Positions 798 to 64,000 of a stretch of 64,000 nucleotides of DNA are shown piece by piece. The translations under genes were made by a program, and so were the position numbers. The DNA comes from Candidatus Kaiserbacteria bacterium (GTDB lineage Bacteria; Patescibacteriota; Minisyncoccia; Phycocordibacterales; UBA2100). Positions within the stretch are counted from its first letter, which is position 1, and every line of letters begins with the position of its first letter. The stretch is taken from positions 35,272-99,271 of the forward strand of contig JACPLD010000002.1 of the NCBI GenBank assembly GCA_016186765.1. The letters run 5' to 3'. Under the pieces are notes generated by a model. It had not been told where the DNA came from and made no database searches. It saw only the letters and a list, made by a program, of their open reading frames with translations.

Positions 798-872
798 AAA
801 GATAGTGGTTAGTGATTAGCCAGTAGTGGTTAGTAAAAGATAGCATATCAATGACCATGACGTTCGAATGAA

Positions 873-4386: not shown

Positions 4387-5493
4387 TTAGCGTACCACGA
4401 CCTCAACCGGCACGGGCTCGGCGACGTTTACAACCCTAAATGATACCCCGCCGATGAGCTGGCCGAACTCGGTGACGACGTTCACTCGCCACCGCCCTTC
4501 ACGAAGGCGAGTGTTGATCGAGTAGCCGCGATAGCCTCTCTCACGCCCTCCTACGATCGTGTATGGAATGACCTGCTCTGTCACCCATTTGTCCCTTGTA
4601 TCGTCGTACCACTGCCACTCGTGGGAAACGGCCGTTGAAAGCCCGGTGGGAGCGAAGATCGATGTGTACACATACGCTATCTCTCCGGGTGCGGCGTGAA
4701 ATACGGTGTTGTACCTGAGGTAGCCCTCATACCACTCGACCGGCTCCGCAAGAAGTTGGTACTCGTCGCCCACTCGCTCAACAGTGTGATAGACTCCTCC
4801 ATCTTTCAGCGCGAGAGGTAGGGGTGGAATCGCATTTGTGAAGTAGAGAACGTTGAACACGACAAAGATCGCCCCGATCGAACGAGCGATGGGTGTGAGC
4901 TCCCGCCGCAGCTCCGGCATAACAAACGACTGCACTACAAGGAACGCAGCGATAATGATGAGGCTCGTGAGGCCGCTTGCGACGAACATGTACGGCCCGA
5001 TCCTGCCAAAGAGGAGCGGAACGTAAAAAATGAGAAAGGAAAAGAGCGCGATGAAAAGAATGCTCATTTGGAATGCAAAACGAAGGTAAAAGCGCACGAA
5101 TCGCTCATTCGCGATAAGCAGGAGTGCGATAACGGCAACAAAAATCCAACTTAGTGAAAACGCCGCACTCCTCGAGTACAACGAGAGGAAAGCGATGAAG
5201 AGACCGCCAAAGGCATACTGCGATACGACCGGCAGGACAGGGGTCACTTTCAGGAGCCACCACTGCTGCAATCGCCCTGTCTGAATGAGACTGATGACGA
5301 GGCTGATCGAAGAGGCAAGTGCAAGGTAAAAGAAGAGTACGAGACTCGTTAAGAGCGTGTCGACGCGGCGCAGCAGAAAGAAGGTATCGATGAGAAGTGC
5401 TGCGACAAGCGTAAGAGGCGAGATGTACCGCATGTACCACTCCGCCGCCTCCTCGATACTTTCCGGGAGCTTGGGTAATCGCGGTCGGGGCAT
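4387..5493 (-). CDS. Hypothetical polytopic membrane protein with a C-terminal soluble beta-rich domain
   Basis: 368 aa; about 6 TM helices followed by a 130-aa non-membrane tail. Confidence 0.5.
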   Translation of the reverse strand: MPRPRLPKLPESIEEAAEWYMRYISPLTLVAALLIDTFFLLRRVDTLLTSLVLFFYLALASSISLVISLIQTGRLQQWWLLKVTPVLPVVSQYAFGGLFIAFLSLYSRSAAFSLSWIFVAVIALLLIANERFVRFYLRFAFQMSILFIALFSFLIFYVPLLFGRIGPYMFVASGLTSLIIIAAFLVVQSFVMPELRRELTPIARSIGAIFVVFNVLYFTNAIPPLPLALKDGGVYHTVERVGDEYQLLAEPVEWYEGYLRYNTVFHAAPGEIAYVYTSIFAPTGLSTAVSHEWQWYDDTRDKWVTEQVIPYTIVGGRERGYRGYSINTRLREGRWRVNVVTEFGQLIGGVSFRVVNVAEPVPVEVVVR

Positions 5494-14595: not shown

Positions 14596-14673
14596 CTAGC
14601 CAATAGCCAATAGAGTTTAGGGAACACAAAGATTCCCATGAGGATCTCCCCTAGTGGCTATACCCTAGTGGCT
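14596..14673. repeat. About 80-nt palindromic intergenic element (CCAATAGCCAATAG ... CTAGTGGCTA ... CTAGTGGCT)
   Basis: Shares its arms and a GGGTTTAGGG core, in inverted orientation, with 48039-48124. It sits between two convergent gene ends, in a terminator position. Confidence 0.7.
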
Positions 14674-36157: not shown

Positions 36158-38533
36158 ATGATCCGAAAAATCCGGAAGTTGTGGCGGAAGATGCCGGCGT
36201 GGATGGAGCTTTCACTTGTCGCGATGGCGGCGTTCTTTTTAATTGCGCTCGGGAGCGCGGTCGTGTGGGCGACTCTGACACCTATCCCCGCCATCGACAA
36301 CTTTGAGAATCGCAAGGTCGCAGAGTCGACAAAAATCTTCGATCGCACCGGCAACATTGTGCTTTTCGACGTCTATGGCCAGATCCGCCGCACCTCGGTA
36401 CCGCTCGAGGAAATTTCTCCATATATCCAGAAAGCGACGATCGCGATCGAAGACACCGAGTTCTACAACCACAGAGGCTTCCGCCCACTCTCCTTTGCGC
36501 GCGCACTGCTCGCGAATCTGAAAAGCGGAAGCTTTAGCCAGGGCGGATCCACCATCACACAGCAGGTCGTGAAAAATGCGCTGCTGACGCAGCGAAAAAC
36601 CATTGGCCGCAAGCTCGAGGAGATCATCCTCGCGCTCCGGCTCGAGCGCGCCTACACGAAGGAACAGATCCTGCAGACCTACCTCAACGAGACTTCCTAC
36701 GGTGGAACCATCTACGGGGTGCAGGAAGCAAGCCAGTACTTCTTCGGCGTCGACGCCAAAGACATCGACCTCGCGCAGGCCGCCTACCTCGCCGCATTAC
36801 CGCAAGCGCCCACACGCTACTCGCCCTATGGTAGCCATCGAGACCTTCTCGATGCCCGCCAAAAGCTCGTGCTGCGGCGCCTTCTCGATGAGAAACTGAT
36901 AACCGAGGAGGAGTACGAACAAGCTGCCGAAGAAGCCGTCACGTTCCGCGGCGGACAGACGGCAGGCATCAAGGCGCCGCACTTCGTCTTCTTCATCCGC
37001 GAGTACCTCGAAGAAAAGTATGGCGCCGACACCGTAGCGCAGGGGGGCCTTCGCGTCGTCACCACGCTCGACTGGGAGCTGCAGGAAAAAGCCGAAGAGG
37101 TTGTCAAAAAGCACGCGCCCTCGATGGAGAGAAATTTCAACGCTGGCAACGAGGGCGTCGTCGCGATCGAGCCCTCAACCGGGCAAATCCTCGCCATGGT
37201 CGGCTCACGCGACTACTTCGAAGAGAAAATCGACGGCGCGGTCAATGTGACGACCTCCTTCCAACAGCCGGGCTCGGCCTTCAAGCCCTTCGTCTATGCA
37301 ACCGCACTCGAGCGCGGCTACACGCCGGAGACAGTTGTCTTCGATCTGCAGACGCAGTTTTCGACAGCCTGCTCGCCGCAGGAGGTGACGAACTCTACGC
37401 CGCCCTGCTATGCGCCAACGAGCTTCGACAATACCTTCAAGGGTCCGGTGACATTCCGCGAAGCGCTCGCGCAATCCCTCAACATTCCCGGCGTGAAAAC
37501 CCTTTACCTCGTCGGCGTCGAAAACGCCTTGAAGATGGCAGAGCGCGTCGGCATCACGACACTCGGCAACGCGGCGGGCTATGGTCTCACGCTCGTTCTC
37601 GGCGGTGGCGATGTGACGCCCTTGGAGCTCACGGGCGCGTACGCCGTTCTCGCAAACGACGGTGTGAAAAATCCCCCGACGGGAATCCTTCGCGTGGAGG
37701 ACCGGGAGGGAAACGTCTTGGAAGAGTACGAGGAGCAAAGCGAACGAGTGATGGAAGCGCAGATCGCGAGACAGATCAGCGATATCCTTGCCGACAACGT
37801 CGCGCGCACACCCGAGTTTGGCGCAAACTCGCCGCTCTACTTCCCGGGCTACGACGTCGCGGCAAAAACAGGCACGACGAATGATTACTGGGACGTCTGG
37901 ATTCTCGGCTACACACCCTCAATTGCGATAGGTGCGTGGGCCGGCAACAACGACAACACGCCGATGGAAAAACGTATCGCTGCGTTCATCATCGCGCCGA
38001 TGTGGCACGAGATCATGGCGTTCGCGCTCGAAACGTATCCAGCAGAGTCGTTCACGCCACCTGCGCCGGAAAATGATGAGGCGCTCCCTCCGGTATTGCG
38101 GGGCAACTGGAACACCGACCCTTCACAGGGCGTGCACGAGATCCTCTACTGGGTCGACAAAGATAATCCCCGGAGCGGTCGCACCTCCAACCGCAGCGAT
38201 CGGCAGTTTCTCTACTGGGAGTATCCGCTTTCGCTCTGGGGTGCAAGCCTCGGCGCACCGAATGCGCCTCCCTTAGGATTTATCATCACCTCTCCTCCCA
38301 ATACTGGAGTCGTGCGCGCCTTCGAGCCGTTCACGCTCTCGGCGATGCACCCGCATCCGGAACTTGTGGAGCGCGTCTCCTACTACCTCAACGGTGGCTA
38401 TGTCGGTGCCTCTGTGCAAGCCCCATATGCCCTCACGCTCGTGCCGGAAGGCACCGGCGCGATGCAGCTCACCGCGGTTGCGGAAACCGCACTCGGCGCC
38501 GAAACGAGCACCATCATGTTCACCATCCAATAA
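36158..38533 (+). CDS. Class A penicillin-binding protein (glycosyltransferase plus transpeptidase)
   Basis: GT51 motifs (EDTEFYNHRGF, GGSTITQQ) and transpeptidase motifs (SAFKPF, KTGTT). Confidence 0.85.
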   Translation: MIRKIRKLWRKMPAWMELSLVAMAAFFLIALGSAVVWATLTPIPAIDNFENRKVAESTKIFDRTGNIVLFDVYGQIRRTSVPLEEISPYIQKATIAIEDTEFYNHRGFRPLSFARALLANLKSGSFSQGGSTITQQVVKNALLTQRKTIGRKLEEIILALRLERAYTKEQILQTYLNETSYGGTIYGVQEASQYFFGVDAKDIDLAQAAYLAALPQAPTRYSPYGSHRDLLDARQKLVLRRLLDEKLITEEEYEQAAEEAVTFRGGQTAGIKAPHFVFFIREYLEEKYGADTVAQGGLRVVTTLDWELQEKAEEVVKKHAPSMERNFNAGNEGVVAIEPSTGQILAMVGSRDYFEEKIDGAVNVTTSFQQPGSAFKPFVYATALERGYTPETVVFDLQTQFSTACSPQEVTNSTPPCYAPTSFDNTFKGPVTFREALAQSLNIPGVKTLYLVGVENALKMAERVGITTLGNAAGYGLTLVLGGGDVTPLELTGAYAVLANDGVKNPPTGILRVEDREGNVLEEYEEQSERVMEAQIARQISDILADNVARTPEFGANSPLYFPGYDVAAKTGTTNDYWDVWILGYTPSIAIGAWAGNNDNTPMEKRIAAFIIAPMWHEIMAFALETYPAESFTPPAPENDEALPPVLRGNWNTDPSQGVHEILYWVDKDNPRSGRTSNRSDRQFLYWEYPLSLWGASLGAPNAPPLGFIITSPPNTGVVRAFEPFTLSAMHPHPELVERVSYYLNGGYVGASVQAPYALTLVPEGTGAMQLTAVAETALGAETSTIMFTIQ

Positions 38534-38536
38534 AAG

Positions 38537-38618
38537 ACCAGTGAACAGAGAACAGTAAACAGCGAACAGAAGGGTGGGCTGTCTTTTGATTTACTGTTCT
38601 CTGTTTGCTGTTCGCTGG
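38537..38618. terminator. Long hairpin built from tandem GAACAG-type heptads; bidirectional terminator between PBP1A and dnaN
   Basis: Left arm CCAGTGAACAGAGAACAGTAAACAGCGAACAG, right arm CTGTTCTCTGTTTGCTGTTCGCTGG. Confidence 0.6.
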
Positions 38619-38621
38619 TCT

Positions 38622-39716
38622 CTATCTATTAAGGGGCATCACAAGGTACGTGAACGATGGATCCGAGACGCCCCTGATCACTAAGGGCTTCCCCGCACCT
38701 GAAAAGCCGAGAATGATGGAATCGGATTCGATAGTCGGCAGGCAATCTGCGAGGTAGCCGATGTGAAAATTGATGTCGAGGTCCTCCCCCGAGAGCGCGG
38801 CATCAAGCGAGTCTGACATCTCACCTATATCCGCGCTGCGCGCGGTCGCACTGAAAATCTTTCTACTAGGGTAAACATGGAAGCCGATGTGTTGATCATT
38901 GCCCGAAAAAACCCGTGCTTTCTTCAGCATTTCAGAGAGATCGCTTTTCAAAACGGTCGCTTCCGTAGAAAAGATCTTCGGGACGATCTCCTTGTAGTTC
39001 GGAAACGTGCCGTCAACGATGCGCGAGATGAAACGGACACCATCAGCGGAGACCGAAAGTTGTGATTCGTCAGCGGTAAGCTTCACCTGCGCTCCTTCAG
39101 CGTGTTCGAGCACGTGGGAAAGTTCGAGTGCGTGCCTGAGAGGAAGGAGCACCTCCTCTCCCCGCTCACTCGAGCCGATCATCTTCTCGGCGAGCCTGAA
39201 CGAATCGGTTGCGACACAGATAACCCCAGTGGCTCCCACTAAAAGGTAGATGCTCCCCAACTCCGGTCGTATCATTGAGGGTGAGGCCGCATACGAAACA
39301 GCCTGCAAGCCTCGCAAGAGTTGCTCTCGAGAAACATTCTCCCCCTTCCCGTCTGTCGGTGGCGAGAGGGTCGGGAACTCATCGTGCGGCATACCCTTTA
39401 TAACGGTCTTCGTCCCCCTCGATTCAATGAGGAGGTTGCCATCCTCCGCCGACAAAGTCACCTTGTCACCGTGGGTTGAGCGCAGAGTTTGCGAAAGCAC
39501 GATAGCGGGCACCGCGATGATCCCTTTTTCATCAACCTCACCAGGGACAACAACCTCAACACCTGCTTCAAGATTTGTTGCCCGTAGTACGATGGTTTTC
39601 CCACTCACCTCAAGAAGGATGCAGGATAGTGTTGGGAGTGTTTCCTTCTTACCCGTGAGCCTCTCCGCAATGAGAACACCACCCAGAATCTTTTCTTTGG
39701 TTGTTGATGCTCTCAT
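38622..39716 (-). CDS. dnaN: DNA polymerase III beta sliding clamp
   Basis: Full-length DnaN-like sequence and its position after dnaA. Confidence 0.85.
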   Translation of the reverse strand: MRASTTKEKILGGVLIAERLTGKKETLPTLSCILLEVSGKTIVLRATNLEAGVEVVVPGEVDEKGIIAVPAIVLSQTLRSTHGDKVTLSAEDGNLLIESRGTKTVIKGMPHDEFPTLSPPTDGKGENVSREQLLRGLQAVSYAASPSMIRPELGSIYLLVGATGVICVATDSFRLAEKMIGSSERGEEVLLPLRHALELSHVLEHAEGAQVKLTADESQLSVSADGVRFISRIVDGTFPNYKEIVPKIFSTEATVLKSDLSEMLKKARVFSGNDQHIGFHVYPSRKIFSATARSADIGEMSDSLDAALSGEDLDINFHIGYLADCLPTIESDSIILGFSGAGKPLVIRGVSDPSFTYLVMPLNR

Positions 39717-39943
39717 ACTATTCTTTTATATATAAATACTATTACTACTACTAGTCCTGTGGATATGGGGTATATGTTGAATTGATCGAGGGATTAATCG
39801 ACTGTTTGGTTTTTGAGATATGTTGAAAACATTCGGATTCGATGTTGGTGATGTGGATGAGATGCGACTACGTGGTAGTAGGTGTTGAAAAGAGTAAAGA
39901 TGTTCTCTGGTAATTCGGGTAGCAATTCACAGGAAATCCGCTG
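39717..39943. promoter_or_regulatory. Candidate oriC / DNA unwinding region between dnaA and dnaN
   Basis: A strongly AT-rich island in a 60% GC genome, with DnaA-box-like 9-mers ATATCCACA (complement of 39757-39765) and TCATCCACA (complement of 39853-39861). Confidence 0.5.
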
Positions 39944-41994: not shown

Positions 41995-42714
41995 ATGATC
42001 TCCGCTGTGTTCCATGTGTTCATCTATGACCCGCTCTACAACGGGCTCGTTTTTTTGGTGGGCATTATGCCAACGCACGATGTCGGCCTTGCCGTGATCG
42101 TGCTCACCATCTTGGTACGCGTACTTCTCTTTCCTCTCTCGCGCCGCGCTGTGGAGACGCAGCTTGCGATGAAGAAGATCGCACCAGACGTCGAACGTCT
42201 CAAGCAGAAGTACAAAGCAAACCGTGAGGAGCAAGCAAAAGCACTCTTTGCTCTCTATCGCGAGCATGGCGTTCATCCTTTTGCGAGTATCGGACTTCTT
42301 CTGGCGCAACTCCCGGTCCTCTTCGCACTCTACTGGATATTCGCCAGCGGCGGCTTGCCGGATATTCATCCCGAGCTTTTGTATTCGTTTATTTCCCCGC
42401 CGGAAGGTGTGAACATGGCCTTCCTCGGGCTTCTTGACATGGCGGGGCACAGCATTGAGCTCGGCGTTTTGGCTGCGATCACGCAGTTTGTGTACACACG
42501 ACTCTCGATGGGCGCTCCAGAAAAAAAGTCTGCGGGAGAAAGCGCAACGTTCTCAGCCGATCTCGCGCGCAGCTTTGAGGTGCAGGCGCGCTATGTGCTT
42601 CCTGCGACGTTCGTGGTGCTCTCCTTCTTTATCCCAAGCGCGGCTATGCTCTACCTTACGACGAGCAACGCGTTCATGATCGGACAAGAGCTCTTTGCGG
42701 GGAGAAGGTTTTAG
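41995..42714 (+). CDS. yidC: Membrane protein insertase YidC (short form)
   Basis: Five TM helices and the YidC/Oxa1 pattern LLAQLPVLFALYWIF; located after rnpA. Confidence 0.8.
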   Translation: MISAVFHVFIYDPLYNGLVFLVGIMPTHDVGLAVIVLTILVRVLLFPLSRRAVETQLAMKKIAPDVERLKQKYKANREEQAKALFALYREHGVHPFASIGLLLAQLPVLFALYWIFASGGLPDIHPELLYSFISPPEGVNMAFLGLLDMAGHSIELGVLAAITQFVYTRLSMGAPEKKSAGESATFSADLARSFEVQARYVLPATFVVLSFFIPSAAMLYLTTSNAFMIGQELFAGRRF

Positions 42715-42791
42715 GCTTTAGAAGGTTTAAGGTGTCAGGTGTAAGGGGAAAGAATTTGCCTTATCCCTAAAACCTTTCCCCTGCTACCTTC

Positions 42792-46085: not shown

Positions 46086-48032
46086 TCACATCGTCGTCTT
46101 TGAGGCCTGCGCATCATCTCGTGCGAGAACCGATTTAAGGCGGGCACCTGCGCTATCAGGAGCTCGTATCTGTGCCGCCTGCGGGATCCCAGCTGGTGTA
46201 TCTCCCGGGAGCTGCCCCGCATTCGCGAGTTCTTGCTTCGCCTTTTTGATCGCGAGGATCTGCGAAGGGTCGGATGTGATGATCTGGTCTTCGGTATAGC
46301 TCGCGATTACCTTGATCGCGACGTGCTTTAGCCCAGCGAAGAAAATGCCCTCTCCCACATCCGACTCGAGCAACAGGTACTTTTCTTCATCGGAGAGTTT
46401 AAACGTTTGCTGAACGAGGTCGACCGAGGTTGGCGATTGCCGAAGAAGGATTTGGATCGAGGAGTTGGTGATCATCGGGATGCCGTAGGGAGAGTTGAGG
46501 AAGTCGGAAACATCCTGCGTGATCGTCGAGATGCCGAGGTAGTACTTGCGCCCGCGCTTCGCGATCCCGAAGAGGAAGGAGGCAGTGTCCTCGCTTCGCA
46601 TCATCCACCACGCCTCGTCGATCACGAGGAGTCGCTTGCGCAGTTCTTTTCTCACGGTGTTCCAGATGTAGTGCGTGATGATGTACATCGCGACAGGTTT
46701 GAGATCGTCCTCCATGTCGCGAACAGAAAAGACGATGAGCTTTTTGTTCATGTCGACGTTCGTGGGCCGGTTCATGAACCCAGCCCACGTCCCCTTCGTG
46801 TATTTGGAAAGGCGCGCGACTAATGACTCCGAGCCTTCCATGCCGGATAGGACGAGCTCGAAGTCGGAAAGCAAGGGCGGCTCGACGGATGCGAAGTTTG
46901 CCTCCGCGGTGATGTCTTTGAGGGCGTAGGTTTCGGTGATCGCCTTGTCGATGACCGCATCCTCCTCGGGCGTGAGGCCGCCTAGCATGATGCGGAAGAG
47001 CCCCACGAGCGAGATGATGTTGTTGCGCAGCACGTCGGAAGGGTTTTCGTCTTCGCGCGGGATGGGAAGATCGAAGGGATTGATGTGGTGCTCGGATGAA
47101 AGGGAAATGTTGAAGTAGCGTCCGCCGACGGTTTCAGCGAGGTACTCGTACTCGCGCTCGGGGTCGATGACGATTACCTCGGCGTCGAACATGAGGGAAC
47201 GCAGTATCTCGAGCTTCGTCATGTAGGATTTGCCCGCGCCGGATTTCGCGAATGTCACCGAGTTGTAGTTCTCTAAGCTAAAGCGGTCGAAGAGGATCAG
47301 CGAGGAGTTGTGGCGGTTGATGCCGTAGAGAATGCCGCGATCGCTTGTGAGGTCGAAGGAGATGAATGGAAAGATTGATGAGAGCGGTGCAGAGTTGAGT
47401 TTCGTGTGTACGTCGAGCTCGTCGAGAGCAAGCGGCAGCACTGAGCGAAATCCTCCTTCCTGCTGGAAAAGCGCTGGACGGATGTAGACGAGGCGACCCT
47501 CGAGAATGGAGCGGACCTCGCTTTCGATCTTGTCGACCTCCTCGCGCGTCGCGCCGTAGATGGTGAGGTAGAGGCCGACTTCAAAGATGCGCTCCTGCGC
47601 CTGCTGCAGGGAGTCGCGGAGCTTCTCGAGGTCTTGGTAGGCAGTATCGAGCACTGGGTCGCGAACCATCCCCTTCTCCTCACGCGTCGCGATCTGGCTC
47701 TGCACCTCCGCCACTTTTTTCTGGAACTTGCGGAGCACCTCGATGGTATCCATCGGATGCACGAGGATCGAGATATCGATCACCTTGTCCATGTTGATGA
47801 TGGGCGCAAACCATCCCGTTGTGAGGAAGCGCGGGTAGGAGATCACGAAGAACGTGCGGGCAATCTTTTCGCCAAGGTCGATCTCCCGCGAGCTGATCCT
47901 AAGCGCGTGTGGCGCGATCACGTCTTGAAGCGATAGTACGCCGGTCTTGTAGATCTCCTCGGGAAGAACAGGCAGCACCGCTGCTGCAGGCGCAGTCTTC
48001 TTTTTGAAAGGGAGGAGGTCGGTAAATGCCAT
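46086..48032 (-). CDS. VirB4/TrbE/CagE-family T4SS ATPase
   Basis: Walker A FAKSGAGKSY, Walker B LLVIDEAWWMM, and a VirB4-like N-terminal domain. Confidence 0.8.
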   Translation of the reverse strand: MAFTDLLPFKKKTAPAAAVLPVLPEEIYKTGVLSLQDVIAPHALRISSREIDLGEKIARTFFVISYPRFLTTGWFAPIINMDKVIDISILVHPMDTIEVLRKFQKKVAEVQSQIATREEKGMVRDPVLDTAYQDLEKLRDSLQQAQERIFEVGLYLTIYGATREEVDKIESEVRSILEGRLVYIRPALFQQEGGFRSVLPLALDELDVHTKLNSAPLSSIFPFISFDLTSDRGILYGINRHNSSLILFDRFSLENYNSVTFAKSGAGKSYMTKLEILRSLMFDAEVIVIDPEREYEYLAETVGGRYFNISLSSEHHINPFDLPIPREDENPSDVLRNNIISLVGLFRIMLGGLTPEEDAVIDKAITETYALKDITAEANFASVEPPLLSDFELVLSGMEGSESLVARLSKYTKGTWAGFMNRPTNVDMNKKLIVFSVRDMEDDLKPVAMYIITHYIWNTVRKELRKRLLVIDEAWWMMRSEDTASFLFGIAKRGRKYYLGISTITQDVSDFLNSPYGIPMITNSSIQILLRQSPTSVDLVQQTFKLSDEEKYLLLESDVGEGIFFAGLKHVAIKVIASYTEDQIITSDPSQILAIKKAKQELANAGQLPGDTPAGIPQAAQIRAPDSAGARLKSVLARDDAQASKTTM

Positions 48033-48038
48033 AGGCGT

Positions 48039-48124
48039 TAGCCACTAGCCACTAGGGTTTAGGGGGAGCAAAGTTGAATTTCATAGGTATTCTCTAATGG
48101 CTAATTACTAGTGGCTATTGGCTG
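48039..48124. repeat. About 85-nt palindromic intergenic element (AGCCACTAGCCACTAG ... CTAGTGGCTATTGGCT)
   Basis: Inverted homologue of 14596-14673, lying directly upstream of the virB4 start. Confidence 0.7.
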
Positions 48125-48780
48125 TTCAGTGGCATTGGCTTGCCCGCTTCGCCGGGGTTGAAGAGTTTATAGAAGAGCTCAATTGCTTCCTCGGTTCCCA
48201 ACTGTACCGTGCGCACGCCGGTGCGGATCAATCCTTGCTGCACGATCGCAACACGCTGCTCGAGCTGCGAGACCTGCTCCTCGAATGTTCTGTTTGCGTC
48301 AGCCGCAGTAGCCTTCTTCTTGTTCCACGGCAGCATCGACGCAGGGCCGCCTTTCCCGATCGGCGCGAGCGAAGGTGCATACGGCACGACGACGAAGAAA
48401 TTTTTCGTCATGATGTTTGCTGCCTCCGTAAAGCTCTTAATGAATTCTATGTATTCGCGTATCTGGATGCGCATCAGGTCATCGAGTTGCTCTTTGAAAC
48501 GCTCTTCGAGCGTTGCAACGTACGGACGGATATCGAGCATGCGTGATTGTACGAAGATCTGCACGGAGAAGTCGAGCGAGTTGAGAAAGTTCTGGAATTG
48601 CAGGAGGAATGCGCTCTGTTCGTCTTCCGATTTCAGCGCGAAGTTGAGTGAGGAAGCAAGGAGTATCGCGCGCAACCCCCCACCTTTCAGGATGACGATG
48701 CCGTCGCGTACCTCGGCAATCGGCACGAATTCCTGTGCCGATCTCTTGCCAGCGCCGAGGGTTTGGAGGGGTGTGGACAT
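48115..48780 (-). CDS. Hypothetical protein resembling a VirB4 N-terminal domain
   Basis: FVPIAEVRDGIVILKGG...NFALKSEDEQ...FLNSLDF.VQI pattern, as in the N-termini of conjugative VirB4 ATPases. Confidence 0.4.
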   Translation of the reverse strand: MSTPLQTLGAGKRSAQEFVPIAEVRDGIVILKGGGLRAILLASSLNFALKSEDEQSAFLLQFQNFLNSLDFSVQIFVQSRMLDIRPYVATLEERFKEQLDDLMRIQIREYIEFIKSFTEAANIMTKNFFVVVPYAPSLAPIGKGGPASMLPWNKKKATAADANRTFEEQVSQLEQRVAIVQQGLIRTGVRTVQLGTEEAIELFYKLFNPGEAGKPMPLNSQ

Positions 48781-48782
48781 GG

Positions 48783-49271
48783 TTATTGGACAAGCGCCTC
48801 GCGAGCTGTTCGCACGGGTGCGACGATGCCACCGACGTGTTCACGGTCCTCTGCGACCCCCGCTGCGATCCGCTCCTTGATGTCGAGACTCCACGCGAGC
48901 TCGTGCAATTTGCTTTCGGCGAGCTTTGGAATGTAGACTTCCGATGTAGGCTCGATTTTCTGTTCTCGCTTGCCTGTTTTCTGTTTGCTTCTCAGCTCAT
49001 TGCTCCAGAGATAGAGCTTGCTTCGTACAAGGTAGTAGAAGCCATTTTCCAAACCGAGAACGAAGGGGCGGCCGTTCCACTGCAGGAACGCGAGCGCTGC
49101 CGCAAGCCCCCCGATGCCAAGTATCAGTGGGCCCGCGAGATAGAGCGGGAGCACACGCCATAGGAGGTACGCCGCACCGGCGCCACCTGCCATATAGATG
49201 AACTGCTTGAAGGTGAGCGGTCCGAAGATCTTGTCTTCGACCTCGATGAATTGGGGGACCTGAAATTGCAT
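48783..49271 (-). CDS. VirB3/PrgI-like small T4SS membrane protein
   Basis: 162 aa, two TM helices near the N-terminus, immediately upstream of the VirB4-like genes. Confidence 0.4.
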   Translation of the reverse strand: MQFQVPQFIEVEDKIFGPLTFKQFIYMAGGAGAAYLLWRVLPLYLAGPLILGIGGLAAALAFLQWNGRPFVLGLENGFYYLVRSKLYLWSNELRSKQKTGKREQKIEPTSEVYIPKLAESKLHELAWSLDIKERIAAGVAEDREHVGGIVAPVRTAREALVQ

Positions 49272-49306
49272 ACTCGAGAGAGCAGCGAACAGAGAACAGC
49301 GAACAG
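49272..49306. repeat. GAACAG heptad repeat block (AGCAGCGAACAGAGAACAGCGAACAGTTAACG)
   Basis: Same heptad family as 38537-38618; inverted partner at 49669-49708. Confidence 0.75.
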
Positions 49307-49687
49307 TTAACGCAGTTTCGCGCGGAGCGCGTACAGCATTCTGCCGGTTTCGTCCAGCTGCATCTCAATTGTACTACAGTCTTTTTCGGTACAGTACGAG
49401 AGTTCTTTCGCAATTGTGAGGAGGGTTTCGAGCTCAGTCAGCGAGCCGTGCGATATCCTTAGAAAGTTTGCAAATTCCTTGGGAGTATTTCTTCCGTAGC
49501 CTTCGGCAATATTGGCTGCGACAGAGACTCCAGCACGCCGCATTTGGGAAGTCAGGGCAAATAGCTCATCTTTGGGAAATTTTTTCGTCAGTGTATATAC
49601 TCCAAGCGAAAGCTCAACGGCTTTCTGCCAAACCAAAAGCTTTCTATAAGAATGGCTACCCTCTAGATTTTTCTGTTCTCTGTTCAC
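49307..49687 (-). CDS. Four-helix-bundle protein (23S rRNA intervening-sequence protein family)
   Basis: YRKLLVWQKA...LTSQMRRAGVSVAANIAEGYGR...SLTELETLL. The N-terminus MNREQK is encoded by the heptad repeat itself. Confidence 0.7.
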   Translation of the reverse strand: MNREQKNLEGSHSYRKLLVWQKAVELSLGVYTLTKKFPKDELFALTSQMRRAGVSVAANIAEGYGRNTPKEFANFLRISHGSLTELETLLTIAKELSYCTEKDCSTIEMQLDETGRMLYALRAKLR

Positions 49688-49708
49688 TGTTTTCTGTTAT
49701 CTTGCTCA
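49669..49708. repeat. GAACAG heptad repeat block (complement: GATAACAGAAAACAGTGAACAGAGAACAG)
   Basis: Inverted relative to 49272-49306; the pair brackets the four-helix-bundle gene. Confidence 0.75.
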
Positions 49709-50314
49709 CTGCGGCGGTTCTCTGTAGGGATCGTCGTGAATATCTTTGCGCGCACTCGAGGGCTCCCCAGCTCTATATGCTCCTGAGGTTGGACCGCGAA
49801 CGGCCTTCTCGGTTCCCTGTGGAGGTGGAGGTGTTGCCGGTACGACAGGAAGTGGTGCTGCAATCACTGAAGTGTTTTCCTCCCTTTCCCCTATAACCTT
49901 TCCCCTATCACCTGTACTTGCAAGCACCTGCGCGCGTGTTGCCTCGACGCTACTCACCTCTTTTTCTTTCGCCTCCGGATGCTCGAGTTCCCGCTCGAGT
50001 TCTTGCCGAATGGGCTCAAACACGATGCGCGAGACATCACTTGCAAGAGAATTTGTAACTTCATCAGAAACTTCAAGGTCAGCTTTTAAGTTTTTTGCCA
50101 GCTCTTCTGGCGGCTGAAATCCAAGCAAGGTGAGCATCACGTTGTTTTCGAGCAGTTGCCACTGATCCAAATGCAGATGTTTTGTGTCGGCGAGCTCACG
50201 CAGCTGTTTTTGTATGCCCACGGATGTTATGGCATCTTGGACGACCTTAGGCAGCTCTTTGAACCGATCCTGGATTTTTTCGTCGAGCTCTTTTTTTGAG
50301 ATGTCAGCGTTCAT
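49706..50314 (-). CDS. Hypothetical acidic/coiled-coil protein
   Basis: Start at MNADISKK, 5 nt after the VirB6-like stop; Pro-rich C-terminus. Confidence 0.35.
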   Translation of the reverse strand: MNADISKKELDEKIQDRFKELPKVVQDAITSVGIQKQLRELADTKHLHLDQWQLLENNVMLTLLGFQPPEELAKNLKADLEVSDEVTNSLASDVSRIVFEPIRQELERELEHPEAKEKEVSSVEATRAQVLASTGDRGKVIGEREENTSVIAAPLPVVPATPPPPQGTEKAVRGPTSGAYRAGEPSSARKDIHDDPYREPPQ

Positions 50315-55170: not shown

Positions 55171-55320
55171 AGGCAAAGAGCGCTCGAGCTGAACGTGTCG
55201 AGTTTCCACGCTAAAAGTATACCTCCTATATGGGGAATTCACGGGGATAACGCGTGGATAGGGAGCAGGTTTAAGGGGAAAGGTTTCAGGTTTCTTAACC
55301 TAGCACCTTGCCCCTAACAC

Positions 55321-56208
55321 CTATAACCCTACTTGCGAGAATGTGAAGATGCTTCCGGCATCTTCGGGTGCAAACGAAACGCCGTATGCCGAAATGAGCG
55401 TTGCGAGCGAGACGTAATTCCTCACGTAGGCTTCTACCGCTGCGTTATATGCGAGCATGGCATTGAGTACCGCCTCGTCAGTATTTGCCTCTGGAACGGC
55501 AGAGAGTTTCGCGCCGAGCTCCCGGTAGCTTGCGGCCACCTTCTGGTGCGAGCTTACTATCTCAGAGGGTACTTCCATCTCGGCGAGTTGCTCTCCCACA
55601 TCCCCGAGCGCGCGCGCGAGTGAGAGGAGCACGGCATTTTTCTCAGGATCTTCTCTGTCTTCGAACTGGTCTTTGAGGATCTGCGGTGCGCTACGGTACA
55701 TGTCTTCGAACGACTGAATGTATAAGCCAGCCTCGTTGCCATAGTTGAAAAGCGCTTGCTGTGTGGGTGTCAGCTCCTCTCCCCTCGTCGACGTGCTTAT
55801 GAGGGTGAGCGGGATAAATGAGTACGCGTCGAGCGCGGGAGGAGCCGTGCTTCCATCACCCGCCGCGACACGTGGAGGAGCCGAGAGTAGTGCGACGAAT
55901 GCGTCGAAGTCGAAGTCGATCTCGCTTTGCGGTTGCGCGAGCGGAAGTTGTTCCGTTGCTGTCGTGTAGTAGAACGGAGGACCGCTCAGCACTTGCGTGT
56001 AGAGATTGTCTGCAGGGGTGGAGGGCAACTGCCTTACGCCGACGTTCGTCGGGTCGAAGAGGTTGCTCCCGACGCCGCCCCATGCGCGAATACCAGATGT
56101 CTGAGGGTTCACATCAGAGCGGTTTACGACGATAGTTCCGCCGATCACAAGTACAAGAATTGCACCCCCAAACGCGGCGATGTATGGGTGCGCGAAGAGC
56201 CAGGACAT
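55321..56208 (-). CDS. Membrane-anchored hypothetical protein, first gene of the T4SS-like operon
   Basis: N-terminal TM AAFGGAILVLVIGGTIVV. Confidence 0.4.
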   Translation of the reverse strand: MSWLFAHPYIAAFGGAILVLVIGGTIVVNRSDVNPQTSGIRAWGGVGSNLFDPTNVGVRQLPSTPADNLYTQVLSGPPFYYTTATEQLPLAQPQSEIDFDFDAFVALLSAPPRVAAGDGSTAPPALDAYSFIPLTLISTSTRGEELTPTQQALFNYGNEAGLYIQSFEDMYRSAPQILKDQFEDREDPEKNAVLLSLARALGDVGEQLAEMEVPSEIVSSHQKVAASYRELGAKLSAVPEANTDEAVLNAMLAYNAAVEAYVRNYVSLATLISAYGVSFAPEDAGSIFTFSQVGL

Positions 56209-56320
56209 AGGGTATAGGGTACAGGTGTTAGGTTATAGGGGCAATGCAGAGAGGTGAGTTTCTCCTAGAACCTGAAACCTAGAACCTGATCCCTGTGCAA
56301 AGAGTGATACAATTTTTCCC

Positions 56321-62918: not shown

Positions 62919-64000
62919 TCAGAATTCCCGTGCTCGGTATTGGAGCGCCTCTAACATGTGTATCGGCTCGATTGTCTCGCTTCCGGCGAGGTCAGCGACG
63001 GTGCGCGCGAGTTTAATGGTGCGGTGATAGCCGCGCGGCGAGAGTTTCATTTGTCGCGCCGCTCCTATGAGTGCGGCTTCGGCTTTATCGGAGAGTCTTG
63101 CGAGCGTTTCGATATGCTTCGGCTTCATGTCGGCGTTCGTGAATATCGCGGTACCTTTGAAACGGTCGCGTTGTCTCTTTCGCGCCCCTGCAATTGCTTC
63201 CCGCGAGGCTTTCGTTTGGGTTTCTCTACCTGCTCTATACTTTCTGTTCACTGTTAGCTGCTCTGGCGGCATCTCGCCGACGTGTACCCACATGTCGATG
63301 CGGTCTGCAACGGGTCCCGATATCTTGCGGCGGTACTTATCTATTGCGTACGGCAAGCACTTGCACCTTGCGCCTCCCCAAAAGCCGCAGGGACACGGAT
63401 TCAAAGCCGCGATGAGCATGAAGTTCGCGGGAAATGTGACCGAGCCTTTTGCGCGCGAAATGGAGACGACCCTGTCTTCTAAGGGCTCGCGCAGGGCATT
63501 TATGACGTCGCGGTGGAACTCGGGGAACTCGTCCGCAAAAAGGACGCCGCGGTGCGCGAGCGTCACTTCGCCCGGGCGGATGAGAGAGGATCCCCCGCCG
63601 ATGAGAGAGGCGTACGAAGAAGTGTGGTGCGGCGAGCGAAAAGGGGGCCTCTCCATAGGGCCGCCCGCGAGCGTCCCGGCGAGCGAATGGATCGTCGTTA
63701 CCTCGACCATCTCTTCTTCGGAGAGGTCGGGCAAGATTGCTGCGGTAGCCCGCGCGAGCAGGGTTTTGCCGGTGCCGGGCGGACCGTAGAGCGCGATGTT
63801 GTGGCCGCCGGAAGCGGCGATCACAAGCCCGCGCTTCGCATCCTCCTGCCCGCGTATCTCGTCGAGCGCGGCGTCATCTTGCATACCGCGGCGCACCCTC
63901 CGCACCCGTGGAATCTCTCTATGATCTCCATTTTCGAGCAGCGCAAGCAGGTGCTCGAGCGAAGCGACCGCATGGATCCGGAGGCCTGATACGAGCGATG
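62919..64000 (-). CDS. comM: YifB/ComM-family Mg-chelatase-like AAA+ ATPase (competence protein ComM); N-terminus beyond the window end
   Basis: GQEDAKRGLVIAASGGHNIALYGPPGTGKTLLA and the C-terminal Mg-chelatase domain. The frame stays open upstream of GTG 63905 to position 64000. Confidence 0.75.
   Translation of the reverse strand, partial: SLVSGLRIHAVASLEHLLALLENGDHREIPRVRRVRRGMQDDAALDEIRGQEDAKRGLVIAASGGHNIALYGPPGTGKTLLARATAAILPDLSEEEMVEVTTIHSLAGTLAGGPMERPPFRSPHHTSSYASLIGGGSSLIRPGEVTLAHRGVLFADEFPEFHRDVINALREPLEDRVVSISRAKGSVTFPANFMLIAALNPCPCGFWGGARCKCLPYAIDKYRRKISGPVADRIDMWVHVGEMPPEQLTVNRKYRAGRETQTKASREAIAGARKRQRDRFKGTAIFTNADMKPKHIETLARLSDKAEAALIGAARQMKLSPRGYHRTIKLARTVADLAGSETIEPIHMLEALQYRAREF

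Follow-up and report, generated by a model that had tools for sequence, protein, structure and literature searches.

Intervening sequences (IVSs) of the 23S rRNA that contain an S23p ORF possess inverted repeats and are considered to be selfish elements; IVSs devoid of an ORF exist as well. In the IVS of Coxiella burnetii two to three tandem GACAGAT heptamers, their number varying between strains, are located just 5' of the S23p start, and RNase III cleaves the 28-bp terminal stem in vitro, its 5' cut having been mapped to the first of these heptamers (PMC4990558). ORFs of the 23S_rRNA_IVP type have also been found in insertions within the 16S and 23S rRNA of CPR bacteria (PMC11270868). Four-helix-bundle genes are furthermore present inside cas operons, where they have been interpreted as functionally associated, and the RxxxSxxxNxxE motif of the PF05635/TIGR02436 four helix bundle proteins was described in the same work (PMC3936711). 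Heptanucleotide repeats, often arranged as inverted pairs, occur in unexplained excess in Xanthomonas, Nostoc, Beggiatoaceae, Bacteroidetes and Geobacter (PMC4692102, PMC4679880, PMC2700814).

The locus analysed here carries a gene of the PF05635 family between two inverted arrays of heptads, placed in a spacer of a T4SS-like operon. It is located in the window, i.e. the whole 64,000-nucleotide stretch of DNA that was analysed, and NCBI names an identical protein from a Candidatus Kaiserbacteria bacterium.

Organization of the element and its host operon

The genes of the operon are encoded on the minus strand in the order: 807/855-aa membrane protein, 202-aa protein (p202), 126-aa ORF, PrgI-family protein, TraC-like protein and VirB4-like ATPase. 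The 126-aa ORF (49307..49687, minus strand, GTG start) is preceded by p202 (49706..50314, minus strand), which is conserved in the T4SS-like operons of relatives, and followed by the PrgI-family gene (48783..49271, minus strand), the TraC-like gene (48115-48780, minus strand) and the gene of the VirB4-like ATPase (46086-48032, minus strand). An earlier sequence-only reading of this DNA had placed the ORF in a T4SS operon, between a "VirB3-like" gene and the next one; the neighbour in question belongs to the PrgI family.

The ORF is enclosed by two arms built of heptads. The 5' arm (49673..49702, minus strand), with the sense units ATAACAG, AAAACAG, TGAACAG and AGAACAG, begins 6 nt after the TGA stop of p202 and holds the GTG start codon (49685-49687). 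The 3' arm (49277..49306, minus strand), with the sense units CTGTTCG, CTGTTCT, CTGTTCG and CTGCTCT, directly follows the TAA stop of the ORF and ends 5 nt before the ATG of prgI. The first six codons, GTG AAC AGA GAA CAG AAA, all lie within the 5' heptad array, as had been proposed before. The bracketing of the ORF by inverted heptad blocks, drawn in the sequence-only reading at 49272-49306 and 49669-49708, was likewise recovered, with the limits moved to those of the two arms. On the plus strand the GAACAG units extend over 49277/49283-49306 and the CTGTTC units over 49673-49700/49702, and the pair of blocks constitutes an inverted repeat of 23 nt that is 87% complementary, with 373 nt between its halves. 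The GAACAG double unit, GAACAGNGAACAG, occurs 14 times in the window at no more than one mismatch, against 0.45 expected, a count reached in 0 of 100 shuffles. The complete element (49277-49702) is about 430 bp long, has sense orientation and takes up the spacer that separates two genes of the T4SS-like operon.

Folding of a 455-nt RNA that covers the element revealed a heptad stem closing both the MFE and the centroid structures; the stability of the whole fold was unremarkable (z -1.5). The Rfam scan of positions 36000-58000 (E up to 1) gave no match, the element being situated outside rRNA with protein genes as neighbours, and the PADLOC run gave no match either. The closing stem and the result of the Rfam scan, together with the PF05635 assignment described below, agree with the initial view of an rRNA-IVS-like stem-loop with an ORF outside rRNA. 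The element sequence is identical in six independent assemblies obtained from other samples, and an assembly artefact is therefore excluded; among these six assemblies no variation in heptad copy number within the population was observed.

Characteristics of the four-helix-bundle protein

The ORF product matches the PF05635 23S_rRNA_IVP profile with an E-value of 2e-39 and 134.5 bits (cut-off 33.8), TIGR02436 with 131.8 bits (cut-off 24) and NF008911 with 139.3 bits (cut-off 137). The RxxxSxxxNxxE helix face is present, its residues R51, S55, N59 and E62 being invariant in the family alignment. The nearest solved structure is that of the pentameric XCC0516 (2GSC, E 1.9e-21), and 2RLD also matches; by homology to XCC0516 and to Avd, the ORF product is expected to be pentameric. 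No catalytic domain able to move DNA is recognisable in the 126-aa protein. A paralogue search within the window found the gene in one copy only. Comparison of the closest ORF pairs gave dN values of 0.14-0.20 with dS saturated, and omega was about 0.18 where computable. The four-helix-bundle ORF is maintained by purifying selection.

Distribution of the element in related operons

The comparison covered 68 loci surrounding PrgI relatives and another two that were reached via close homologues of the ORF. The spacers p202/prgI, prgI/traC and traC/virB4 were each found in three states among the relatives: (i) a tight junction or a short promoter-like spacer; (ii) an ORF-less heptad hairpin of 60-125 nt, present in L094 (two spacers), L095, L098, L103, L104, L106, L137 and L159; (iii) a PF05635 gene flanked by heptad arms, 410-490 nt in length. 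The third state was observed in the p202/prgI position in 8 of 36 scored spacers and additionally in L007, L110 and L150, in the prgI/traC position in L117, and in the traC/virB4 position in L007 and L156, the last spacer also containing divergent members in L101 and L117. In all T4SS loci every four-helix-bundle gene points in the same direction as the operon. The p202/prgI spacer is empty and 44 nt long in L092 (PrgI 79% identical) and in L155, which are relatives as close as any. Different protein clades occupy the same spacer across relatives, and the heptad type follows the protein clade and not the spacer.

The relationship of arms and ORF is illustrated by locus L007, where a single operon contains two cassettes belonging to two protein clades and two heptad families. 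Its traC/virB4 cassette encodes a protein 75% identical to that of the p202/prgI cassette of the window and possesses the same AAACAG/GAACAG arms, and its own p202/prgI cassette encodes a protein of the other clade and possesses AGGTTTC-type arms. The DNA alignment of the window with L007 displays homology that runs from the 5' arm through the ORF into the 3' arm and is bordered by unrelated flanks, which indicates that the arms travel with the ORF. The order of the heptad units is conserved in both arms between elements of different spacers. In L149 both arms are intact and enclose an ORF of which the first helix (42 aa) is left, with a total length of 173 nt; this cassette is an intermediate toward an ORF-less hairpin.

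The alignment of empty with filled spacers revealed neither an insertion junction nor a target-site duplication, the spacers being unrelated, and the insertion event was therefore not directly seen. Many heptad arrays in the relatives start exactly at the upstream stop codon. The three spacer states, the homology with L007 that includes the arms, and the L149 intermediate support the original suggestion of a mobile or recombinogenic unit that exists with or without the ORF; the heptad blocks recur, the flanks pair, and relatives carry the ORF together with the repeats.

Heptad hairpins without an ORF

Tandem 7-nt units in the intergenic DNA of the window exceed chance, and ORF-less heptad hairpins outnumber the ORF-containing one six to one. 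One of these (38535..38620), which is very stable (dG -45.7 kcal/mol, z -7.1), is composed of GAACAG heptads and sits between a convergent PBP1A-type gene (36158-38533, plus strand) and dnaN (38622-39716, minus strand). It had been described from the letters alone as a hairpin of 4 left and 3 right heptads at 38537-38618; the hairpin itself is confirmed, and its limits are wider, with 5 left and 4 right units when the outer ACCAG/CTGGT units are counted. The sequence-only reading had also taken it for the PBP1A/dnaN terminator, a role that is putative: the hairpin could terminate dnaN transcription, since TTTTATT follows it on the dnaN strand, and on this strand only. The terminator scan does not call it, because its loop is longer than 8 nt. 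In general, the heptad hairpins remained uncalled in the terminator and promoter scan, the counts of which were not above those of shuffles.

Another hairpin (48039..48123, TAGCCAC family, z -4.3) is located in the same operon as the element, in the traC-like/virB4 spacer, i.e. in the spacer that is occupied by a four-helix-bundle gene with arms in L007 and L156. In-operon hairpins such as this one are not followed by a U-run and therefore cannot be simple terminators. The remaining hairpins are a weakly folding one of the TAGCCAA family between convergent ORFs (14597..14671, z -0.7), one of the AGGTTTN family (42700..42790), one of the AGGTTTN/NNACCT family (55260..55335, z -4.5) and one of the TAGGGTA/CCTAGAA family (56197..56299), those at 42700..42790 and 56197..56299 having heptad arms as well. 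Folding is weak in three of the six ORF-less hairpins (z -0.7 to -2.0). Several heptad families coexist in this genome, GAACAG being only one of them.

A strict periodicity scan (at least 85% over 3 units) finds too few of these arrays, as one heptad position is free, and a scan for the N4YAG/CTRN4 pattern was used instead. It detected seven (N4YAG) and seven (CTRN4) arrays of three or more units in the window, against about 0.8 and about 1.0, respectively, expected from dinucleotide shuffles. All five array pairs of the window follow the order 5'-YAG...CTR-3', the reverse order being found in none.

Heptad arms across the PF05635 family

The analysis was extended to 80 loci of PF05635 relatives from species-representative genomes of Acidobacteriota, Bacteroidota, Fibrobacter, Chloroflexota, Planctomycetota, Proteobacteria, Firmicutes and several CPR groups. 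Periodicity was measured in the 90 nt upstream and the 80 nt downstream of the gene in 78 loci, as the best fraction over four units. Period 7 alone was enriched, with a mean best fraction of 0.68 compared to 0.38-0.47 for periods 5, 6, 8 and 9 (78 loci). Among the 78 loci, 19 upstream and 29 downstream flanks had a period-7 fraction of at least 0.8, compared to 1-2 flanks for the other periods. The upstream and downstream arms were complementary, with a score of at least 20, in 55 of 75 loci; of the 59 controls, taken at a displacement of 1 kb, none (0) reached this score.

The heptads differ from locus to locus (TGGTTAG, GGTGTAG, GCAGTAG, GGAACAG, TTTTCAG, CTTCTAG and others), and both arms remain complementary; this change of heptad with preserved pairing is covariation on a large scale. 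A YAG core (TAG or CAG in 5'-arm sense) is present in 78% of strong arms; the shuffled consensus gives 27% and the opposite polarity 7%. The arms of PF05635 loci follow the pattern 5'-(N4YAG)n ... (CTRN4)n-3', the N4YAG unit of the window element being NGAACAG. G predominates in the 5' arm and C in the 3' arm (466 G:C vs 140 C:G pairs), and this polarity is identical when read from either strand. Mismatches within the arms are of G.U type in 39 and of A.C type in 29 cases, which does not single out the sense RNA; the constraint could therefore lie in the DNA or concern both strands. In 61 of 70 PF05635 loci the gene has the same orientation as its upstream neighbour.

The same bracket was identified in plasmid copies of cultured cyanobacteria (Calothrix, Geminocystis, Anabaena sp. 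90, Nostoc and Trichormus), the Anabaena sp. 90 copy being located between cas6 and cas4. The copy of the Azospirillum lipoferum 4B plasmid AZO_p2 is embedded in a 23S rRNA gene (Rfam LSU, 2548 bits) and is a classical IVS; its arms are formed by AGAGGAC, GGATGAC, AGAGGAC and GGAGGAC on one side and by CCGTCCT, CTGTCTT, CTGTCAT and CCGTCTT on the other. The heptad bracket is a property of PF05635 genes throughout the family and not a peculiarity of this locus.

A recognition code between protein and heptad was considered but is not claimed: the overall correlation (Mantel r 0.16) vanishes in comparisons across taxa, where the protein distance is 0.528 vs 0.530. Similar heptads occur in distant taxa without more similar proteins, and co-inheritance therefore explains why heptad type and protein clade are linked.

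Proposed mode of action and alternative explanations

The element at 49277-49702 is probably a mobile, selfish, IVS-type PF05635 element that resides in an mRNA operon, leaves MITE-like relics and is a presumed target of RNase III. It would be co-transcribed with the T4SS-like operon, and base-pairing of its arms would yield a stem of about 25 bp around the ORF, in which the start codon is hidden. By analogy with the Coxiella IVS, RNase III may be expected to cut the heptad stem. Such a cut would part the upstream from the downstream cistrons and limit ORF expression. The hairpins devoid of an ORF, including that at 38535-38620, may represent MITE-like relics produced by internal deletion, which could persist as RNA-end or processing structures. 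Their arms may also offer homology for re-acquisition of the ORF, which would be copied into ORF-less hairpins of the same family; as an alternative, movement could depend on the protein acting with host factors. The putatively pentameric protein would act on nucleic acid, either for spread or for maintenance. Arrays of NNNNTAG would give stops in all three frames from either direction and could thereby render insertions beside gene ends harmless. This idea fits the arrays that begin exactly at an upstream stop codon; the CAG-type arms of the window element provide stops via the free heptad position only.

Rather than through RNA, the arrays may act on DNA, as cruciform or slipped structures or as binding sites of the pentamer, in recombination, replication pausing or regulation, with the RNA stem being incidental. 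This reading is given a modest chance. It would account for the mismatches, which show no wobble bias toward the sense strand, and for the polarity of the arms (G/T-rich 5' arm with YAG), which is the same on both strands. Avd, a relative of the protein, binds nucleic acid and a polymerase, which also suits an action on DNA. However, the strong co-orientation of the ORF with the upstream host genes is not anticipated by it, the rRNA IVS stems of the same heptads are demonstrated substrates of RNase III, and protein and heptad do not covary across taxa.

It is unlikely that the heptad hairpins came first, as pre-existing host elements (slippage repeats, REP-like sequences or terminators) into the loops of which the gene inserts preferentially, the arms then being the target. 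The surplus of ORF-less hairpins in the window, the existence of heptanucleotide repeats with no stated link to this gene (PMC4692102, PMC4679880, PMC2700814) and the recurrence of similar heptads in distant taxa whose proteins are dissimilar would all be compatible with such a history. A target would not, however, be expected to keep the order of heptad units in both arms between elements residing in different spacers, nor to follow the protein clade within one operon, as the two families and two genes of L007 do. The arms that remain in L149 after decay of the ORF, and the bracket in 55 of 75 loci across phyla, also speak for arms and ORF as parts of one unit.

A role of the gene as a true accessory or regulatory part of the CPR T4SS-like system, with the hairpins as operon-internal regulatory structures, is very improbable. 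Its presence in the p202/prgI position in 8 of 36 scored spacers and three further loci would suit such a role, but the gene is missing from the equally close relatives L092 (PrgI 79% identical, 44-nt spacer) and L155, other spacers are used as well, different clades are found in the same spacer, and the same cassette occurs in rRNA, cas operons and plasmids of unrelated phyla (PMC3936711). Finally, the notion that the gene is the Avd accessory of a diversity-generating retroelement (DGR), or a remnant of one, was rejected and retains practically no probability, as bAvd (PF22296) and the Avd equivalog (NF033474) match weakly, their 33.7 and 36.4 bits lying under the respective cut-offs of 40 and 80 bits, while 23S_rRNA_IVP scores 134.5 bits, and the ORF has T4SS genes on both sides with no reverse transcriptase or template/variable repeat adjacent to it.

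Significance of the heptad cassette

If a single cassette architecture holds true, it would join three puzzles that have been treated separately. The first is the role of the ORF of the 23S IVS, open since 1993. The second concerns 7-nt tandem repeats, which constitute an over-represented class of long repeats in many bacterial genomes. The third is posed by the genes annotated as "four helix bundle protein", which are numerous and scattered, even within cas and secretion operons. As a tentative generalization, to which we would give somewhat less than an even chance, PF05635 genes may be the signature of pan-bacterial mobile cassettes with YAG heptads, of which the 23S IVS is one context. ORF-less relics would then account for much of the unexplained heptanucleotide hairpins (cyanobacterial STRR, Xanthomonas, Beggiatoaceae and Geobacter), and the association with cas genes would reflect selfish insertion. 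With one shared architecture, all three puzzles would become testable in tractable carriers, among them Nostoc PCC 7120, N. punctiforme, Azospirillum and Xanthomonas. Annotation would then have to treat heptad hairpins and PF05635 genes within operons as insertions that may cut polycistronic mRNAs, and not as parts of the operon.

In the open full-text literature, heptamers beside an S23p ORF were noted only in the Coxiella paper (PMC4990558), and no description of a family-wide inverted heptad bracket or of a YAG core was found. Non-rRNA cassettes treated as IVS-type elements, or ORF-less heptad hairpins treated as their relatives, were not found in the open full-text literature either. The family-wide heptad rule is provisionally considered new.

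Comparison with known systems

The protein shares with Avd, the accessory of DGRs, a homologous four-helix-bundle fold and, as predicted by homology, a pentameric state. In contrast to Avd, it falls under the Avd family cut-offs and has no reverse transcriptase or template repeat nearby.

The arrangement of the element resembles that of REP/BIME-RAYT systems and of pairs of MITEs with autonomous elements, in that a gene is bracketed by inverted short repeats and accompanied by many gene-less intergenic copies. The differences relate to the gene, the repeat and the insertion site: the four-helix bundle is the sole ORF, with no transposase fold or recombinase gene; the repeat is a tandem heptad array and not a fixed palindrome; and no target-site duplication was found.

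The described heptanucleotide repeats used for comparison were the STRR of Calothrix and Nostoc, the GGGAATC inverted pairs of Xanthomonas, TAACTGA of Beggiatoaceae, cyanobacteria and Bacteroidetes, and the paired MTYCTGA arrays of Geobacter. Like the arrays of the window, these are intergenic tandem units of 7 nt, often in inverted pairs, variable in copy number and often abutting start or stop codons. The YAG/CTR core can be recognised in several of the known heptamers, namely TAACTGA (= CTGATAA units) and MTYCTGA. The phyla with known heptanucleotide repeats are also rich in PF05635 genes, and the cyanobacterial plasmid copies have heptad arms. Unlike here, the papers on these repeats tie them to no gene.

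The ORF-less IVSs of Enterobacteriaceae and the rRNA insertions of CPR bacteria (PMC11270868) are similarly short hairpins, which occur with or without an ORF at sites of the same kind and are scattered phylogenetically; the hairpins of the window differ from the ORF-less rRNA insertions in lying between protein genes and in being built of heptads.

The closest counterparts are the 23S rRNA IVSs of Coxiella burnetii, Leptospira and Azospirillum. The element of the window is distinguished from them by its position, since it sits in the spacer of a protein operon and not in helix 25 or 45 of the 23S rRNA, and by the predicted outcome of processing, which, by analogy, would cut an mRNA instead of fragmenting rRNA. 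In other respects the organization is shared: the protein belongs to the same family, the ORF is placed in the loop of an inverted-repeat stem, the arms are heptameric, the size is about 430-470 nt, and the start region lies in or beside the 5' arm. The heptad of Coxiella, GACAGAT, and those of the window are both of the ACAG type.

Cassettes inside rRNA and cas loci

On plasmid AZO_p2 of Azospirillum lipoferum 4B, a PF05635 ORF has been identified within a 23S rRNA gene that is itself genuine, scoring 2548 bits against Rfam LSU. The ORF interrupts this gene at the helix-45 region (about 1437-1905 of locus L163), and the arms of the insertion are heptad arrays: AGAGGAC GGATGAC ... / CCGTCCT CTGTCTT .... 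On plasmid pANA02 of Anabaena sp. 90 a four-helix-bundle gene is located between cas6 and cas4, with GGTGACA / CTGTCAC heptads on either side. An "association" of this protein family with cas loci has been published (PMC3936711); it may reflect insertion of the cassette rather than function.

Heptads within coding sequence and one-armed arrays

The 202-aa gene of the window (49706-50314, minus strand) contains five heptads in a row, in frame, at 49883-49913 (sense: GTACAGG TGATAGG GGAAAGG TTATAGG GGAAAGG), which encode TGDRGKVIGEREENT. They fall in a hypervariable, indel-rich linker of the protein, and the homologue in locus L096 has TERTENGEQKTETQ at the matching position. The coding sequence of this gene seems to have absorbed heptad arrays. 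Two one-armed arrays without a clear partner arm are also present in the window (799-833 and 63244-63264), represented by GTGGTTAG-type repeats and CTGTTCA CTGTTAG CTGCTCT; these may be decayed hairpins.

Spacers and genes of the T4SS-like operon

The spacer between the 202-aa gene and prgI is empty in two comparison loci, L092 (351-402) and L155 (4836-4887). Both empty spacers start with TGAACAG, i.e. the stop codon followed by ACAG, forming one GAACAG unit, which may be chance, a seed or a footprint. An extended -10-like box (TGCTATAAT) precedes prgI in both and is missing from spacers that hold the cassette.

The VirB4-like ATPases of two other loci, L007 (2067-6116) and L101 (6652-10245), possess an intein with a LAGLIDADG domain, unlike the window VirB4 (46086-48032). 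The dnaN-dnaA spacer of the window (39717-39943), a possible site of the replication origin, is 227 nt long and AT-rich and contains short direct repeats (TACTATTACTACTACTAGT).

Other small ORFs in repeat hairpins

In loci L105 and L106 a GIY-YIG gene (PF01541) lies in the spacer between the 202-aa gene and prgI (4410-5003). It carries long inverted repeats of its own and is nested in a decayed four-helix-bundle cassette. The remnants of this older cassette are only a C-terminal coding piece (..NSLLSEVSRMLRVMIEKLEASN) and a 3' arm of AGCTTCT-type heptads. In L153 a PD-(D/E)XK_3 "GxxExxY" gene (PF13366), flanked by arms of ATTCGTAA-type repeats, occupies the prgI-traC spacer, and the following spacer is filled by an ORF-less hairpin of the same repeat type (repeat-hairpin features at 860-1440 and 2110-2250). 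This PF13366 system is a parallel to the four-helix-bundle cassette: a small ORF in a repeat hairpin, built from another gene and another repeat.
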